Positions 2,540 to 19,438 of a DNA stretch of 30,849 nucleotides are shown piece after piece. Source of the DNA: a virus; the UHGV virus genome UHGV-0006354, one strand, 5' to 3'. Both the position numbers and the translations under genes were made by a program. Numbering within the stretch: position 1 is the stretch's first letter; every line of letters begins with the position of its first letter. Under the pieces are notes generated by a model, which did no database searches, had not been told where the DNA came from, and worked only from the letters and a program-made list of their open reading frames with translations.

Positions 2540-2911
2540 ATGTCAGATGCAAAATCAATCTCGACGAACGACTCGCAAAACTCACAAAATCAAACTGTGA
2601 TGCTAGATCCAACACAGTTTGATGCCATCGTTACCGCCATGCTGCCAGCTCTACAGACAATGATTCGCTCCGCTATGTCAGACACGATGACTGTGAAAGA
2701 CTTCGCCGCTACTCGCGGTGTTAGCGAGCGTCTGGTCTGGCAATGGCTCGATGAGGGAGTCCTTCTCAAAGCTCCGACCAAAGACTTTTCCAACAAAGAG
2801 GAAGCTGCTAAACGAAGCCGAACCCTCGTAAATGTAAAAGCATGGCGCGATAAGCTGACTCAACAAGCGATTGATTGTCGCTACATCGACCAGCGCACCG
2901 CTCTTAACTGA
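2540..2911 (+). CDS. Apl/Cox-like HTH regulator-excisionase, first gene of the lytic operon
   Basis: 123 aa, divergent from cI; HTH-like segment VKDFAATRGVSERLVWQWLDEGVL; an internal start at MLDPTQ (2600) is possible. Confidence 0.55.
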   Translation: MSDAKSISTNDSQNSQNQTVMLDPTQFDAIVTAMLPALQTMIRSAMSDTMTVKDFAATRGVSERLVWQWLDEGVLLKAPTKDFSNKEEAAKRSRTLVNVKAWRDKLTQQAIDCRYIDQRTALN

Positions 2912-4480: not shown

Positions 4481-6703
4481 TTGGCTGTTCAATTCGCTTA
4501 TCCGTGGAACGTCCCACGGTCGGCAATCTCCAGCCCATACCTTACTTATGAGCAACAGCATCGCCGCGACCGTATGTTCGCGGCTTTGCTGCATGCAAAA
4601 AAGGTGCTTTCTCTCCAGCCCGACTGCGTGCGGTTAGATGTTTATCGCACTGCTGCGGTGCTGGAGCAAAATCAGGGTAGTCAACGAGCCAATGCATTTT
4701 TAATCAACTTCTGCAAAAAGGCATTGCCGCGTCTTGAACTGGTCGCAAAAAAATACGAATGCGCTGGTATCAATAGCAAGGTATCAACCGCTGTTTTTGG
4801 AAGTCATTTTGATACTCAGCAAATGCAATATCTGTCGTCACGCATGGTTAATATGGTCGCCCGATATAACCGTCTCCCGGATATGTCGCGCGCTGATGTT
4901 GACCTGTTGGCCGCTGATATTGCTAATTTCATTCGTGGTGAACTTGCCAACATTAATGACCACGGATTCGGCGAGCTTAAAACGCTGTACACCTGGTATA
5001 TTCGTGCTGGCTTTATTTCCCTCCAATTTAACGTTATCCCACCACATTGGGAGCGGGTTGAAAAAAAATATGTCGGTGCGGATGAAATCGCACCGGCTAT
5101 CGCCAAAATGTTTAACGATGGGTGGTGGCGCGGTCGTTTGCGCCGTGTTGCAGCTACGTGGCGCGAACACCTGCAAATTGCAGTCGGCAACGTCAGTAAG
5201 AAAAAAAACACTTACGCGAGTAAAAACTGCGTGACTGACTGGCGTGAACAAAAGCGCCGCACTCGTGAATTTCTCAAAGGTCTGGATCTCGAAGACGAAG
5301 ACGGCAACCGTATCAGCCTGATTGAAAAATATGATGGCTCAGTTGCTAACCCTGCGATTCGCCGCTGTGAGCTCATGACCCGCATTCGTGGGTTTGAAAA
5401 CATCTGTAATGAGCTCGGTTATGTCGGTGAGTTTTACACTCTAACCGCGCCGTCAAAATATCACGCCACGACTAAAGCCGGTTACCGTAACAGCAAATGG
5501 AGCGGTGCCAGCCCGGCTGACACGCAAAACTATCTAACCGGTATCTGGGCGCGTATCCGTGCCAAACTACATCGGGAAGATGTCCGTATTTTCGGTATTC
5601 GTGTCGCCGAGCCTCATCACGACGGCACTCCACACTGGCACATGCTGATGTTCATGCTGCCGGAAGATGTTGAATATGTTCGCTCCATCGTCCGTAAATA
5701 CGCATGGAAAGAAGACCGCCACGAACTGAAAAGCGATAAATCCAAAAAAGCACGTTTCCACGCCGAGTCCATTGACCCAGAGAAAGGGAGCGCAACCGGC
5801 TATGTTGCTAAATACATTTCAAAAAATATCGACGGTTATGCTCTCGATGGTGAAACCGATGATGAAAGCGGTGAGCTGCTGAAAGAGACAGCCCCCGCCG
5901 TTTCAGCATGGGCTGCGCGCTGGCACATCCGTCAGTTTCAGTTTATCGGTGGTGCGCCGGTGACGGTTTACCGTGAGTTGCGTCGCCTCGCTGATACCGA
6001 AACCGCGCACGGACTGAGCGTTGAGTTTGCCGCCGTCCATGATGCCGCCGACGCTGGTGACTGGGCTGGTTATGTTAATGCTCAGGGTGGGCCGTTTGTC
6101 CGTCGCGATGATTTACAGGTGCGCACACTGTATGAACCGCGTACCGAGCTTAATCAGTACGGTGAGGAAACAGTATGTATTAAGGGAGTCTACGATTCCT
6201 CCATAGGTGCAGGGAGTCCGATTTTAACCCGGCTCACTCAGTGGAAGATTGTTCCGAAGCGTGCTGTTGATTTGGCCGTTGACCTTCAGGACGGCAAAGC
6301 CGTCCCTCGGAGTTCTGTCAATAACTGTACGGGAAGCGAAAGCGATCCACCGATACTGGATTTAACAAAACCACTGAGTCGGCGTGAAAGACGAGAATTG
6401 ACCAACCGACTCAGGAAGCAAAAGCCAGCAGCACGGCGAAAATTCATCCACGGAACGGATGAGCAAAACGCAGCTATAGCTAAAACTATCGACGAGATAC
6501 ATCTGACAACCGGCATTAATATCAGCCGGGGCGAAGCCCTGCACCTGATGGCCGGTGGTAAAAGTTGTTTTGATGGTAAATGGCTACGCGGAACGGCCAA
6601 AGGAGAAATATTTTCCGCAGCACCATCGCATGAGGCTAAAGCTCGGAAAATCCTTAATCGTGTTGCGGCGATGGCTGAAGCATCAAAACCAATACATGAG
6701 TAA
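4481..6703 (+). CDS. A: Rolling-circle replication initiation endonuclease (P2 gpA family)
   Basis: 740 aa; TTG start with N-terminus MAV..AYPWNVPR like P2 A; conserved EPHHDGTPHWHMLMF HUH-type motif and YVAKYISKNIDGY tyrosine motif. Confidence 0.85.
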   Translation: MAVQFAYPWNVPRSAISSPYLTYEQQHRRDRMFAALLHAKKVLSLQPDCVRLDVYRTAAVLEQNQGSQRANAFLINFCKKALPRLELVAKKYECAGINSKVSTAVFGSHFDTQQMQYLSSRMVNMVARYNRLPDMSRADVDLLAADIANFIRGELANINDHGFGELKTLYTWYIRAGFISLQFNVIPPHWERVEKKYVGADEIAPAIAKMFNDGWWRGRLRRVAATWREHLQIAVGNVSKKKNTYASKNCVTDWREQKRRTREFLKGLDLEDEDGNRISLIEKYDGSVANPAIRRCELMTRIRGFENICNELGYVGEFYTLTAPSKYHATTKAGYRNSKWSGASPADTQNYLTGIWARIRAKLHREDVRIFGIRVAEPHHDGTPHWHMLMFMLPEDVEYVRSIVRKYAWKEDRHELKSDKSKKARFHAESIDPEKGSATGYVAKYISKNIDGYALDGETDDESGELLKETAPAVSAWAARWHIRQFQFIGGAPVTVYRELRRLADTETAHGLSVEFAAVHDAADAGDWAGYVNAQGGPFVRRDDLQVRTLYEPRTELNQYGEETVCIKGVYDSSIGAGSPILTRLTQWKIVPKRAVDLAVDLQDGKAVPRSSVNNCTGSESDPPILDLTKPLSRRERRELTNRLRKQKPAARRKFIHGTDEQNAAIAKTIDEIHLTTGINISRGEALHLMAGGKSCFDGKWLRGTAKGEIFSAAPSHEAKARKILNRVAAMAEASKPIHE

Positions 6704-6777
6704 TTCATATCCATATCATGCACATACAGCAATCGCTCTATTCGTTTTTTTTCTTCCCATCTTTTGCCAATACGTGC

Positions 6778-6797
6778 TACTGTATAAATATACAGTA
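6778..6797 (+). promoter_or_regulatory. LexA operator (SOS box) 20 nt upstream of the 6817 ORF
   Basis: TACTGTATAAATATACAGTA; CTGT-N8-ACAG at 6780-6795, near-perfect match to the E. coli LexA consensus. Confidence 0.7.
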
Positions 6798-6816
6798 ACC
6801 CTATGGGAGGGATTTC

Positions 6817-6999
6817 ATGGTTGGCGAACATTTCAGCCGAACGCAGCAAAAGTGGGCTTGTGTGCAATTTATTGCCGAGGTATCTCTGATTGCAAACTGC
6901 AAGCCATCAGACTTAAAGCTCGCGCTCACTCTCATTGCAGACCTAGCAAACAGCGAAAATAACGAAACCGAAGATGATAATTTTTATAAGGCTGATTAG
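6817..6999 (+). CDS. LexA-controlled small protein, candidate Tum-like antirepressor module
   Basis: 60 aa; GGGAGG Shine-Dalgarno; directly downstream of the SOS box; ends at TAG in the same frame as the following DinI-like ORF. Confidence 0.5.
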   Translation: MVGEHFSRTQQKWACVQFIAEVSLIANCKPSDLKLALTLIADLANSENNETEDDNFYKAD

Positions 7000-7002
7000 A
7001 TT

Positions 7003-7236
7003 ATGAGAATCAATATCACGTTGGATAAAGAGCAAAAAATTAGTCAGACAACGTTGGATGCACTTGAGGCTGAGCTGTACCGCAATCTTCAACCTATTTA
7101 CCCAAAGACTGCTATCCGCATTCGTAAGGGCTCAGCTAATGGCGTTGAGCTAAGCGGTTTGAAACTGGACGAAGATAAAAAACGAGTGATGGAAATCATG
7201 CAGCAGGTATGGGAGGACGATAGCTGGCTGCATTAA
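7003..7236 (+). CDS. DinI-family protein
   Basis: 77 aa; MRINITLDKEQKIS...ALEAEL...KKRVMEIMQQVWEDDSWLH follows the E. coli DinI pattern (MRIEV..., ...ISEILQETWESADDW). Confidence 0.7.
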   Translation: MRINITLDKEQKISQTTLDALEAELYRNLQPIYPKTAIRIRKGSANGVELSGLKLDEDKKRVMEIMQQVWEDDSWLH

Positions 7237-7240
7237 CAAA

Positions 7241-7307
7241 CGCCGTCGGTGCTGAATCTTGCTTTCAGTGCTGACGGGGTTGAACCACTGGCTCCGCGAG
7301 ACGTTAG
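7241..7307 (+). repeat. Direct repeat copy A (67 bp, about 82 percent identical to copy B)
   Basis: Starts 5 nt after the DinI-like stop; conserved hairpin CTGAA-N7-TTCAG. Confidence 0.6.
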
Positions 7308-7431: not shown

Positions 7432-7641
7432 ATGCATCGACTACCGGGCGAAATTCCGCAGCACAAAACTAAAAGCATAAAACTGATGGCTATCGTTCAT
7501 CGCTTGCAGACGATAATGGTCAATGAGAATCTGACGCCAGCAGAATTAGTCGGGTGTGCAGAAGTAGTCAGAGATAACTACGGCAAGCTGGACGATATCA
7601 GCAGACCGACACATTACGCACCGCCACCACATCGACCATAG
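7432..7641 (+). CDS. Hypothetical protein
   Basis: 69 aa; GAGGG Shine-Dalgarno; bracketed by repeat copies A and B. Confidence 0.45.
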   Translation: MHRLPGEIPQHKTKSIKLMAIVHRLQTIMVNENLTPAELVGCAEVVRDNYGKLDDISRPTHYAPPPHRP

Positions 7642-7645
7642 ATAA

Positions 7646-7712
7646 CGCCGCCGGAGCTGAAACTCGCTTTCAGGTCTGGCGGGGTTGAACAACGAGCTAC
7701 GCGAGGCGTTAG
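7646..7712 (+). repeat. Direct repeat copy B (67 bp)
   Basis: Starts 5 nt after the 7432-7641 stop; hairpin CTGAAA-N5-TTTCAG with compensatory change relative to copy A. Confidence 0.6.
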
Positions 7713-7774
7713 CTGGTCATAGCGTCGCAAATGCTTTAGCCGTCTGCTGGTTAAATAATTCGAGGTTTTTGGAC

Positions 7775-7969
7775 ATGCAAAATCCCCTTTCATCGAAAAA
7801 AGACCCGTTTGCCGATTGGGCAAAGAATCTGACTTTAATGGCTTTAAATAACGACCTGAGCTCTCGCGAGGTGGAAAGCTACACCGCAAAAATGGTCGGG
7901 CAGGCCAGTAAAGATGAGCTTTCAGCCGTTATCAAACACCTATTAAATCACATCAGAATGCGCAAATAA
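7775..7969 (+). CDS. Hypothetical protein
   Basis: Track ORF 7685-7969 begins at TTG inside repeat B; internal ATG at 7775 (MQNPLSSKK...) gives 64 aa; start uncertain. Confidence 0.35.
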   Translation: MQNPLSSKKDPFADWAKNLTLMALNNDLSSREVESYTAKMVGQASKDELSAVIKHLLNHIRMRK

Positions 7970-8533: not shown

Positions 8534-9517
8534 CTAATTTACATGTATGTAGAGTTCACTGTCACTAGACCAGTCGGGGCACTCTAAAGCAAGCCCAAAC
8601 TGCTTGTATATTTCATCAATGACTAATGTTATCTCAAGATAATCATCAAAACCTGTAATGCGTTGATCATTGAATTTTTCATAAAGATTCTGAAATGCAG
8701 CTCCTAACTCTGATAATTGATTCCTTATTTTTGAGTTGGATAGTGTAAGGGCTAGTTTTGGGTCGTATTCATTAATATTGATGTTTAGAGAATGGACGTA
8801 ACCTATCGCATAAGCATAGGAGTTGATAATTAGCTTGAAGCGTTTTTTTGCTTCAAGATACATTTCATTCAGAGAAATATTGCCTCTTTTATAGTTCAGA
8901 GTGAGATTTTCAATCTCGTCAGACACTTCATTTACAACAGTATCAAGATTCTCTAGAAATAAATCGATAGTCTCTTGAGGGGCTGACCACGAAGACATGT
9001 AATTAGCAAGATATTCAGACCATGCACGAGTGGCTGTGATAAGCAGCGCGTCGCCATACTCGTTGACTGTAAAGTTTTGGGCTAAGCATGTTAGTAAGTT
9101 TTTTTCATGTACGTGCACTAACTCATGGTGAATGCGATGGATGACTGCGCGGTATCCTTCTTCATTTAATTTCAGGAAGCTACCATCATTAAAAAGCTCA
9201 CCAAAAAAATCAATAGATAGCACAAGGGTATATTCTTCACATAGCCCATCGCTGCCAATTTTTGTTACTAATTGCCCGACGGCTGCGCCCTGTTTGCTAT
9301 TGGTAAATGAACTAGGGGATTTGTGTTGGTAAATGGAAGTCACATTTTGAAGAGCTTCACTGAAATTATAGGAGACAACCACGCATTTTAATTTTGAGAT
9401 ATCAAGATTGAGATTTTTTGTTAAGACTCGAATAGCTTCTAGCGTGAAGTTACCGATATTATTTGCTTCTTGCTCAGTAGTGAAACCTTCGAGGGTTATT
9501 TTAAAATCAGTTTCCAA
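8534..9517 (-). CDS. AT-rich cargo gene: HExxH-motif (zinc-metallopeptidase-like) protein of unknown function, inserted between cos and portal gene Q
   Basis: 327 aa, TTG start with GGAG Shine-Dalgarno; HELVH at residues 131-135; no signal peptide or transmembrane segment; plausible sigma70 promoter (TTGAAG-17-TATAGT on minus strand, plus about 9557-9585). Confidence 0.8.
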   Translation of the reverse strand: METDFKITLEGFTTEQEANNIGNFTLEAIRVLTKNLNLDISKLKCVVVSYNFSEALQNVTSIYQHKSPSSFTNSKQGAAVGQLVTKIGSDGLCEEYTLVLSIDFFGELFNDGSFLKLNEEGYRAVIHRIHHELVHVHEKNLLTCLAQNFTVNEYGDALLITATRAWSEYLANYMSSWSAPQETIDLFLENLDTVVNEVSDEIENLTLNYKRGNISLNEMYLEAKKRFKLIINSYAYAIGYVHSLNININEYDPKLALTLSNSKIRNQLSELGAAFQNLYEKFNDQRITGFDDYLEITLVIDEIYKQFGLALECPDWSSDSELYIHVN

Positions 9518-18447: not shown

Positions 18448-18475
18448 GAGTTGGGTTCGATTCCCTAACCTCGTA
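18448..18475 (+). other. tRNA 3'-end-like fragment (T-arm plus partial acceptor), not a complete tRNA
   Basis: GGGTTCGATTCCC T-loop motif at 18453-18465, followed by ACCTCGT without CCA; no matching 5' acceptor, D or anticodon arm upstream; overlaps the cargo gene stop. Confidence 0.3.
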
Positions 18476-19301
18476 TTATTCCTCTCGATATTTTTATTGC
18501 TGGGTTTTCCTTTCTTATTTCATTTTTAATTTGCTCATCACAAATTAAATAATCTATGTTTTTTGCTTTAACAAGTTCTTTAACGTTAATGTTAATTGAA
18601 TTTAATAGATTTGCATTCCGCATGTTAGCCCCTTCATAAGTAACGGATTTAAAATCACATCCTTTTAATATGCAGCTTTTCATTTCGCTATCTGTAAAAT
18701 ACCCCCCTTCAAAACTGCAGTTTTCGAAAGTGACATTTTGAAAACATGTATTAAATGCCTTAATATTTCTTAGCTTGCAGTTTTTGAATTTAACACTCTT
18801 AACTCTATTGCCTGTAATATTTAGAGCTTGAATTGTGCAATTATCGAAAGAACAATCTCTAATGTATGATTCGCTCATATTCAAGCCGGTTAAGTCAGCG
18901 TCTTTAAAGTGTAAATATTTGATAGTGGACATTTTATCAAGTTCAATCCTTGGAACTTGAATGTTATATATTCCTTTAGCATTTAACTGACGTATGATTT
19001 TTATCTTCATAATATTCAGTTCTGCAGAAGAATGCTTTGCCAGATTTTCAAGATCTTCAATTAGTTCGTGAATAGCATCTTTATTTTGCCTTTTATTTTC
19101 AAAATAGTAAAGAATCACACCCAAAACAAGAAAGTCTAAAATTGAAGAATTTGCATTAACAAGAAAATTCTCCATGAATTTTGAGTTGTAGTTATCATTA
19201 TAAACAGACAACCCTACTATAAGCCCGGAGTATAAAAAAAAGATACCTATAATATATTTCATATTGCTTATTGTACGCCTAAAAGATGAAGTTCTTTTCA
19301 T
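18465..19301 (-). CDS. AT-rich cargo gene: membrane-anchored pentapeptide-repeat protein, inserted between S and V
   Basis: 279 aa from ATG 19299-19301 (track ORF extends to GTG 19346); basic N-terminus then two hydrophobic helices (KYIIGIFFLYSGLIVGLSVY, ILDFLVLGVILYYF); C-terminal repeats of the form ..NC..F.. (DNCTI, KNCKL, ENCSF, KGCDF). Confidence 0.75.
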   Translation of the reverse strand: MKRTSSFRRTISNMKYIIGIFFLYSGLIVGLSVYNDNYNSKFMENFLVNANSSILDFLVLGVILYYFENKRQNKDAIHELIEDLENLAKHSSAELNIMKIKIIRQLNAKGIYNIQVPRIELDKMSTIKYLHFKDADLTGLNMSESYIRDCSFDNCTIQALNITGNRVKSVKFKNCKLRNIKAFNTCFQNVTFENCSFEGGYFTDSEMKSCILKGCDFKSVTYEGANMRNANLLNSININVKELVKAKNIDYLICDEQIKNEIRKENPAIKISRGIIRG

Positions 19302-19438
19302 TACTACCTGCCATATGTTTTGTGTGATTTTCGAATGAGTCAACACTCAAATGATACATGAATGCACACCGAATTGTGTAGAAGAGCATACAGCTGAATC
19401 GTTTTGCTCTTGGCTTTAACAATCGGCATTCTTTGTTC

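Follow-up and report, generated by a model that had tools for sequence, protein, structure and literature searches.

The window analysed in this study is a stretch of 30,849 nucleotides (nt) from the virus genome UHGV-0006354, and it contains a short locus that consists of a LexA operator, an open reading frame (ORF) of 60 amino acids (aa), tumA, and an ORF of 77 aa, tumB. Both ORFs lie in one reading frame, with the TAG stop codon of tumA and a single ATT codon between them. In a preliminary description, the locus was compared with the tum gene of phage 186, and it was proposed to be either a naturally split tum, an amber-interrupted tum that may depend on readthrough or reinitiation, or evidence that 186 tum arose by fusion. 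Here, we describe the anatomy of the locus and its homologies, its conservation, the selection acting on tumA, and the distribution of the different architectures among relatives.

Organization of the tum locus

The LexA operator (SOS box) of the locus has the sequence TACTGTATAAATATACAGTA. It is the sole match to the LexA consensus in the window when up to 3 mismatches are allowed, and none of 100 dinucleotide-preserving shuffles gave any such match. Likewise, the motif CTGT-N8-ACAG occurs once in the 30.8 kilobases (kb), namely at this box. With its single mismatch and its uniqueness in the window, the near-consensus operator of the preliminary description was borne out, and the same is true for its position upstream of the 60-aa ORF. 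However, the spacing between the two, which had been given as 20 nt, was measured to be 19 nt. A LexA box is also present upstream of tumA in all 28 species genomes that were compared, at distances of 17-23 nt, and in 79 of 80 viral contigs. It should be noted that the samples of loci were limited to the best 80 per scan.

The LexA box of the window aligns with the LexA site that is annotated in 186, where it overlaps the -10 element of promoter p95. The promoter DNA is collinear across the window, PSP3 and 186 (TTCTTC[C/A]CA.CTTTTGCCAATACGTGC-TACTGTAT...), and the putative -35 and -10 hexamers of the window, as listed in Table 1, were placed by homology through the alignment with 186 p95.

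TumA, the product of the first ORF, is 98.3% identical to the TumA protein of Salmonella phage PSP3 across all 60 residues. An AlphaFold2 model of TumA has helices at residues 8-25 and 30-53, with a predicted local distance difference test (pLDDT) score of 73. No Pfam model matches TumA, and a profile search of the PDB with TumA returned chance matches only and no solved homologue. The TumA family comprises 208 clusters (90% identity), which are spread over the Enterobacteriaceae. Among the 120 clusters listed, the proteins have lengths of 59-61 aa, barring two short fragments, four proteins with slightly longer C-terminal tails, and a number of N-terminal miscalls in which the called ORF reads through the LexA box. 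The core of the protein is almost invariant (ACVQFIAEVSL.ANCKP.DLKLAL.LIADLA), and purifying selection on TumA is strong, the median ratio of non-synonymous to synonymous substitution rates (dN/dS) being 0.10 (124 pairs).

The sequence confirms the described order of TAG, ATT and the ATG of the 77-aa ORF at the end of tumA, all in one frame. Continuous translation over the junction reads ...FYKAD, stop, IMRINITLDK..., and the total of 60 + 1 + 1 + 77 = 139 codons is close to the 146 aa given for Tum in the 186 record. The assignment of the 77-aa ORF to the DinI family also proved correct. TumB matches the Pfam DinI model PF06183 over profile positions 2-63 of 63 (E-value 7e-24; 84.4 bits against a cutoff of 24.2 bits), and it aligns in full length, over residues 1-75, with the structure of Escherichia coli DinI, 1GHH (E-value 5e-9). 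The acidic C-terminal helix with its conserved Trp is part of this alignment (...QQVWEDDSW in TumB and ...QETWESADDW in 1GHH). Unlike E. coli DinI, TumB is encoded by a phage and in an operon with a putative antirepressor, and its effect on RecA is presumed. A weak candidate ribosome-binding site, UAAGG, is located 11 nt upstream of tumB.

Directly downstream of tumB, the DNA can form a stable hairpin at the place where 186 has the partial terminator t95a. The hairpin has no U-tract and is therefore not a canonical intrinsic terminator; neither was it called as an intrinsic terminator in a terminator scan.

A separate observation concerns the junction itself. Identical junction DNA (GATTAGATTATGAGAATCAATATCAC, positions 6990-7020 of the window) precedes two very different DinI alleles in different prophages, which are ~98% and 41-50% identical to TumB of the window, respectively (loci L190, L192, L194, L205, L221, L222 and L232). 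The presence of two alleles behind one junction indicates that recombination took place with breakpoints a short way into the 5' end of the dinI cistron.

Table 1. Features of the tum locus and of other parts of the window.
Feature	Position	Strand	Remarks
Putative -35 hexamer of p95-like SOS promoter	6754-6759	+	TTCCCA; aligned column by column to the 186 p95 -35 (TTCACA)
LexA operator (SOS box)	6778-6797	+	1 mismatch to the 20-nt consensus
Putative -10 hexamer	6778-6783	+	TACTGT, first 6 nt of the LexA box; by homology to the 186 p95 -10
tumA ribosome-binding site	6806-6812	+	GGGAGGG; read from the sequence, kept in relatives
tumA	6817-6999	+	60-aa putative antirepressor module, predicted two-helix hairpin; ATG at 6817
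Cistron junction TAG-ATT-ATG	6997-7005	+	tumA stop 6997-6999, ATT 7000-7002, tumB ATG 7003; same frame
tumB	7003-7236	+	77-aa DinI-family protein; own ATG
Stable hairpin	7239-7281	+	14 bp; -29.1 kcal/mol, z = -3.65 against shuffles; begins 3 nt after the tumB stop
ORF downstream of the hairpin	7432-7641		phrog_11386
ORF downstream of the hairpin	7685-7969		phrog_2454
Integrase	159-1208	minus	
DUF2511 gene	between integrase and cI		
cI repressor	1581-2426	minus	281 aa; PF07022 twice and PF16452; presumed TumA target
Cox/Apl-like gene, cII, B, orf80, TraR-like gene	between cI and replicase A		
Replicase A	4481-6703		before the tum locus
Portal Q, terminase P, late genes	3' of the tum locus		

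Counterparts of the locus and relation to 186 Tum

The arrangement of tumA and tumB is already known from the annotation of PSP3 and from the literature. In the PSP3 record (GenBank AY135486), tumA is described as 'similar to 5' end 186 tum; UV induction of prophage' and tumB as 'similar to dinI and 3' end of 186 tum'. The TAG-ATT-ATG junction of PSP3 is base-identical to that of the window, the LexA box and the place after gene A are shared, the module is 94% identical at the DNA level, and both ORFs are 98% identical; the differences are allelic only. The corresponding genes of E. coli phage vB_EcoM-613R3 are annotated as 'UV induction of prophage' and 'DNA-damage-inducible protein I'. Lemire et al. 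2011 (PMC3121763) have described the tum genes of PSP3 and Fels-2 as being interrupted by a stop codon, and have noted that 186 Tum resembles a fusion of an antirepressor with DinI. As the split tum was both annotated in PSP3 and published, we regard it as real but ordinary. A literature search for TumA together with TumB gave no match. What the present analysis adds to prior knowledge is modest, namely a comparative census and a profile-level test of homology, and no new mechanism is implied.

186 Tum binds CI and prevents it from binding to the operator, and SOS induction depends on Tum (Shearwin, Brumby and Egan 1998, cited in PMC3121763 and PMC7708051). The 186 record shows p95 with its -35 and -10 elements, the LexA site over the -10, Tum, and nested shorter products, one of which is a GTG-initiated 'truncated Tum' of 76 aa that is annotated as 'modulates SOS induction'. 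Like the locus of the window, 186 thus has a LexA-repressed promoter in collinear DNA, an N-terminal antirepressor module and a C-terminal DinI module, but the two modules are joined in one polypeptide, whereas they are encoded by two cistrons in the window. The C-terminal half of 186 Tum had been described as DinI-like, and this agrees with the 47% identity between TumB and residues 71-145 of 186 Tum. The ATG of tumB aligns exactly with the internal GTG of the truncated Tum, and this GTG follows a strong AAGGAGG. The internal GTG and its strong AAGGAGG indicate that 186, too, makes the DinI part separately.

The relationship of TumA with the N-terminal half of 186 Tum, on which the preliminary description had made its interpretation hinge, was found at profile level. 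Family alignments of 101 TumA-type sequences and of 45 stand-alone 186-type N-terminal sequences were compared by hhalign, which matched residues 16-48 of TumA to residues 14-46 of Tum (probability of 82.9%, E-value of 9.2e-6, 33% identity). A Smith-Waterman alignment of TumA with the N-terminus of 186 Tum had a score of 60, as compared to 21.3 +/- 4.1 for shuffled sequences, and this score was reached by none of 5000 shuffles. Judged by these profile and alignment scores, TumA and the N-terminal half of 186 Tum are homologous, but at profile level only. An alignment that includes Fels-2, as had been proposed in the preliminary description, placed STM2728 of this prophage in one register with TumA and the 186 Tum N-terminus. 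A Cys and an Ala are invariant in the aligned sequences, and the motif aliphatic-A-L-x-aliphatic-aliphatic-[AS]-[ED] is common to all three proteins.

Two further systems can be compared with the locus. In Fels-2 of Salmonella LT2, the 62-aa STM2728 lies behind LexA-like boxes after gene A and is followed by a separate DinI gene, STM2726.1, as in the window. However, STM2728 represents a third N-terminal subfamily, its stop codon is TGA, and the DinI gene is out of frame after a 10-nt gap with its own GAGG ribosome-binding site. The SOS loci of Gifsy-1/2/3 are composed of a dinI homologue followed by the antirepressor gene gfoA/gftA and then irsA (Lemire et al. 2011, PMC3121763). By description, they resemble the locus of the window in being LexA-controlled operons for a small antirepressor and a DinI homologue, with a non-cleavable repressor as target, but their order is reversed, with dinI first, and the prophages are lambdoid rather than P2-like.

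The stop codon of tumA was compared in the 28 species genomes, where it is TAG in 17, TAA in 7 and TGA in 4, with an ORF length of 59-61 aa in 27 of them. A DinI gene follows tumA in 7 of the 28 genomes. Five of these have a 3-nt in-frame gap, including locus L016 with the junction TAA-GCG-ATG, and in the other two the DinI gene is out of frame, with gaps of 2 nt (L024) and 13 nt (L028). The remaining 21 genomes have tumA without a DinI gene within 900 nt, and unrelated cargo or lysis genes are located downstream. The possibility that the DinI-less loci are an artefact of the 900-nt search was ruled out, because these downstream ORFs are unrelated and because no further DinI was found when the tblastn cutoff was relaxed to an E-value of 10 across each 1.5-kb downstream flank. 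Among 80 viral contigs with tumA, the arrangement TAG, 3 nt, ATG was found in 46, one contig has a gap of 94 nt, and 33 have no DinI gene within 900 nt. A TumA-DinI fusion was found neither among the 120 TumA clusters listed nor in the 80 viral contigs. In relatives with identities down to ~60%, tumA terminates at the same codon. The module was matched in 81 of 5426 complete E. coli genomes; at least 80% of it is present in 37 of these, in each case on the chromosome. In the E. coli matches listed, tumA and tumB are two separate genes with the annotations 'hypothetical protein' and 'DinI family protein'.

By the evidence of these comparisons, the TAG at 6997-6999 is a fixed and ordinary stop codon. 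tumB forms a second cistron that is optional and has a start codon of its own; readthrough is not needed, and nothing selects for any trace readthrough product that may arise. The view that the TAG originated as a recent pseudogenising mutation was rejected on the basis of the conservation and the dN/dS values. The locus also lacks the hallmarks of a gene with programmed readthrough or of an amber-interrupted gene: a leaky stop codon with an in-frame downstream ORF is not conserved, and tumB has a conserved ATG.

Two side observations were made in the census. The DinI-less loci L229 and L234 retain a remnant 'TAG GTT ATG' with an early stop codon behind it ('TAG GTT ATG TAA'), which indicates that tumB was lost there. 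Furthermore, in L013, L015, L017 and L018 (Pluralibacter, Enterobacteriaceae bacterium 89 and Kosakonia), the unit of LexA box and tumA immediately precedes a LysM-like tail X gene, a holin gene and an endolysin gene, and the module therefore occurs in a second genomic neighbourhood.

As to the origin of the fused gene, a first set of 80 186-type loci consisted almost entirely of fused genes, with a GTG at the internal start kept in ~73 of 79. Within the 186-type clade as represented by 75 viral contigs, the fused 146-aa gene is present in 54, and a stand-alone N-terminal module of 63-71 aa, without a DinI gene, in the remaining 21. With a profile built from both subfamilies, 68 proteins were found among 1.84 billion representatives (clustering at 50% identity). 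Their median length is 65 aa, and 52 of them are no longer than 80 aa. A DinI domain is present in only 3 of these 68 superfamily representatives, and all three belong to the 186-type clade. As far as this sampling goes, the stand-alone, LexA-controlled protein of ~60 aa is the common architecture, and the fusion is restricted to one clade. The rarity and clade restriction of fused 186 Tum suggest that it is the derived state. The idea that 186 tum arose by fusion is thus favoured by the architecture census, and the textbook example of fused Tum would be the exception to a common form that is still filed under 'unknown function' in PHROGs.

Proposed mechanism and alternative explanations

We consider it highly probable that the region represents the SOS-induction operon of a PSP3/186-type prophage with a naturally split tumA-tumB, in which the TAG is a genuine stop codon. 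The core of the preliminary interpretation, an induction module under SOS control with a Tum-like and a DinI-like ORF, is thereby supported. In the lysogen, host LexA would sit on the operator, which overlaps the -10 element by homology with 186 p95, and due to this overlap the operon would be silent. Upon DNA damage, active RecA would cause the self-cleavage of LexA, so that the operon would become transcribed. The TumA hairpin would then bind the non-cleavable 186-type CI and stop its binding to DNA, thereby derepressing the lytic promoter. tumB would be translated from its own ATG, 3 nt past the tumA stop codon, by means of the weak UAAGG, termination-reinitiation coupling, or both. Like the truncated Tum that 186 produces from an internal start, TumB would presumably modulate RecA filaments and, through them, the SOS signal. 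The in-frame TAG would act in this scheme as a true and fixed stop, being neither a lesion nor a recoding signal. For the binding of LexA, the interaction of TumA with CI, the role of TumB and the translational coupling, the scheme draws on homologues and the literature.

The repressor of the window fits this scheme. The preliminary description had noted that it lacks an obvious autocleavage motif, and we found it to have the domains of a 186-type CI with no S24 autocleavage domain in a Pfam search. The prophage is very likely to be SOS-inducible via an antirepressor and not via self-cleavage of its repressor. Knowledge of this route is useful for annotation and for predicting how the prophage responds to DNA-damaging antibiotics.

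Several points weigh against this interpretation. The prophage of the window is known here from its sequence alone. A generic sigma-70 promoter scan called no promoter at the tum locus, and the TumA family is carried in PHROGs (phrog_1993) as being of unknown function. The statement that the upstream PSP3 gene is an antirepressor is a second-hand one, as it goes back to a personal communication from Christie (PMC3121763). The hhalign match has a moderate probability (83%) and extends over only 33 residues; TumA and 186 Tum were not aligned by pairwise BLASTP, and 186 was not matched in a tblastn search with TumA over 50,697 phage records. We attribute the failure of BLAST to two-hit seeding on a short and diverged match. 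Lastly, the loci with both TumA and TumB nearly all use TAG. However, these loci are closely related, and their near-universal TAG therefore says little either way.

The TAG could in principle be a nonsense mutation in a once-fused gene, with the 139-aa protein being needed and made by readthrough or by means of a suppressor tRNA. This would be in line with the use of TAG in nearly all TumA-TumB loci, with the position of both ORFs in one frame at a distance of one codon, with a combined length near that of 186 Tum, and with the fact that the fused protein works in 186. The stop codon, the frame and the presence of DinI, however, all vary among relatives: L016 has TAA, the frame is lost in L024, L028 and Fels-2, and most species have tumA alone. 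In addition, fusions are absent from the TumA clusters listed, the three DinI-bearing proteins among the 68 representatives are all of the 186 type, the end of tumA is conserved to ~60% identity at a dN/dS of ~0.1, and tumB has a conserved ATG. A tRNA scan of the 30.8-kb window revealed no tRNA genes, and there is thus no phage-borne suppressor. An amber-interrupted tum dependent on readthrough is for these reasons extremely improbable, while the naturally split tum is supported by the near-identity with PSP3 and by the variation of stop codon and frame in relatives. A less demanding version, in which a normal two-gene unit additionally yields a minor TumA-X-Ile-TumB protein by readthrough of UAG-A, with a regulatory role like that of full-length 186 Tum, appears improbable, if somewhat less so. 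Such a dual output would explain why the in-frame layout with a 3-nt gap is kept in most TumA-TumB loci, including the divergent L016 (77% TumA identity), and why one junction sequence precedes two very different DinI alleles. Yet the stop codon of L016 is TAA, the tightest of the three, the DinI gene is out of frame in two lineages and in Fels-2, and no recoding signal was found: an Rfam scan of the window matched no family, and hence no known recoding or regulatory RNA, and the sole hairpin nearby is located downstream of tumB. The conservation of the junction is explained by shared ancestry, given the close relationship of the loci that have it.

In a third alternative, TumA would not be the antirepressor but an SOS-induced small protein with another role, or an upstream ORF that serves only the translation of tumB, with induction of the prophage proceeding by another route. 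The entry in PHROGs, the lack of a solved homologue, the undetectable pairwise similarity to 186 Tum and the indirect source of the PSP3 claim leave some room for this view. However, TumA has profile homology to the CI-binding half of 186 Tum in a register that is shared with STM2728, it shares its genomic position and a LexA-controlled promoter with 186 tum, the protein is under strong purifying selection, and its gene always adjoins a 186-type CI without an autocleavage domain. Moreover, tumA occurs without tumB in most genomes and is therefore not a mere leader ORF. We thus regard another role for TumA as very unlikely.

The CI repressor, the prophage and neighbouring genes

The CI protein of the window has two tandem CI-type helix-turn-helix (HTH) domains (PF07022 twice) and a 186-type C-terminal domain (PF16452). 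The same two-HTH architecture is found in PSP3 and 613R3, where a CI of 286 aa is annotated at this position, whereas 186 CI has one HTH domain and 192 aa. The upstream sequence was long enough in 64 TumA loci; the CI has two HTH domains in 56 of them and one in the other 8, and the one-HTH proteins align with HTH2 and the C-terminal domain. In a set of 50 distinct two-HTH CIs, conservation is highest in HTH2 (aa 97-160; 0.93), followed by the C-terminal domain (0.78), HTH1 (0.69) and the linkers (0.50-0.63). The identity to the CI of the window ranges from 42 to 100% in this set, and the identity of TumA does not fall below 78%. These data suggest that the invariant core of TumA may recognise a conserved CI surface such as HTH2. 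Taking this idea further, the TumA core might dock on HTH2 and act as a broad-specificity antirepressor that cross-induces P2-like prophages, with HTH1 providing the operator specificity and DinI being an optional add-on that was gained, lost, and fused in the 186 clade. We consider this extended proposal speculative and rather unlikely to hold as a whole. If TumA does dock on HTH2, one TumA allele could act across immunity types.

The prophage in the window is of the PSP3/186-like type (Eganvirus), with a P2/186-like gene order. Its nearest whole-genome relative is vB_EcoM-613R3, with 97% identity across 89% of the first 25 kb, and over the same 25 kb it is 87-91% identical to Midge, SI22/SW9, SEN1 and PSP3. 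TumA of 613R3 is 100% identical to that of the window, and the CI proteins are just 73% identical. The order int, cI, cII, B, A, tum, and then cos and Q, is common to the window, 186 and PSP3. The tum locus of the window is placed after the replicase gene A, in a P2/186-like genome whose CI has no S24 domain.

Three other ORFs in the window deserve mention. The first ORF on the lytic strand (2540-2911, plus strand) encodes 123 aa and belongs to phrog_3554, and its match to a Cox-like excisionase/repressor is weak (phrog_575, E-value 8e-5). Apl of 186, with ~87 aa, is shorter than this ORF. An ORF of 327 aa (8534-9517, minus strand) is situated between the tum operon and the portal gene Q and has no match in Pfam or PADLOC. 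Related phages hold differing cargo at this position, 613R3 having three other ORFs there, and the ORF could be a moron or a defence gene. Lastly, an antisense ORF of 293 aa (18465-19346, minus strand) is inserted between the tail-completion gene S and the baseplate gene V. Its product contains pentapeptide repeats (PF13599, E-value 2e-16) and has a weakly SLATT-like N-terminus (PADLOC RTasSLATT, E-value 6e-5), and its counterpart in 613R3 is named 'YjcF'.

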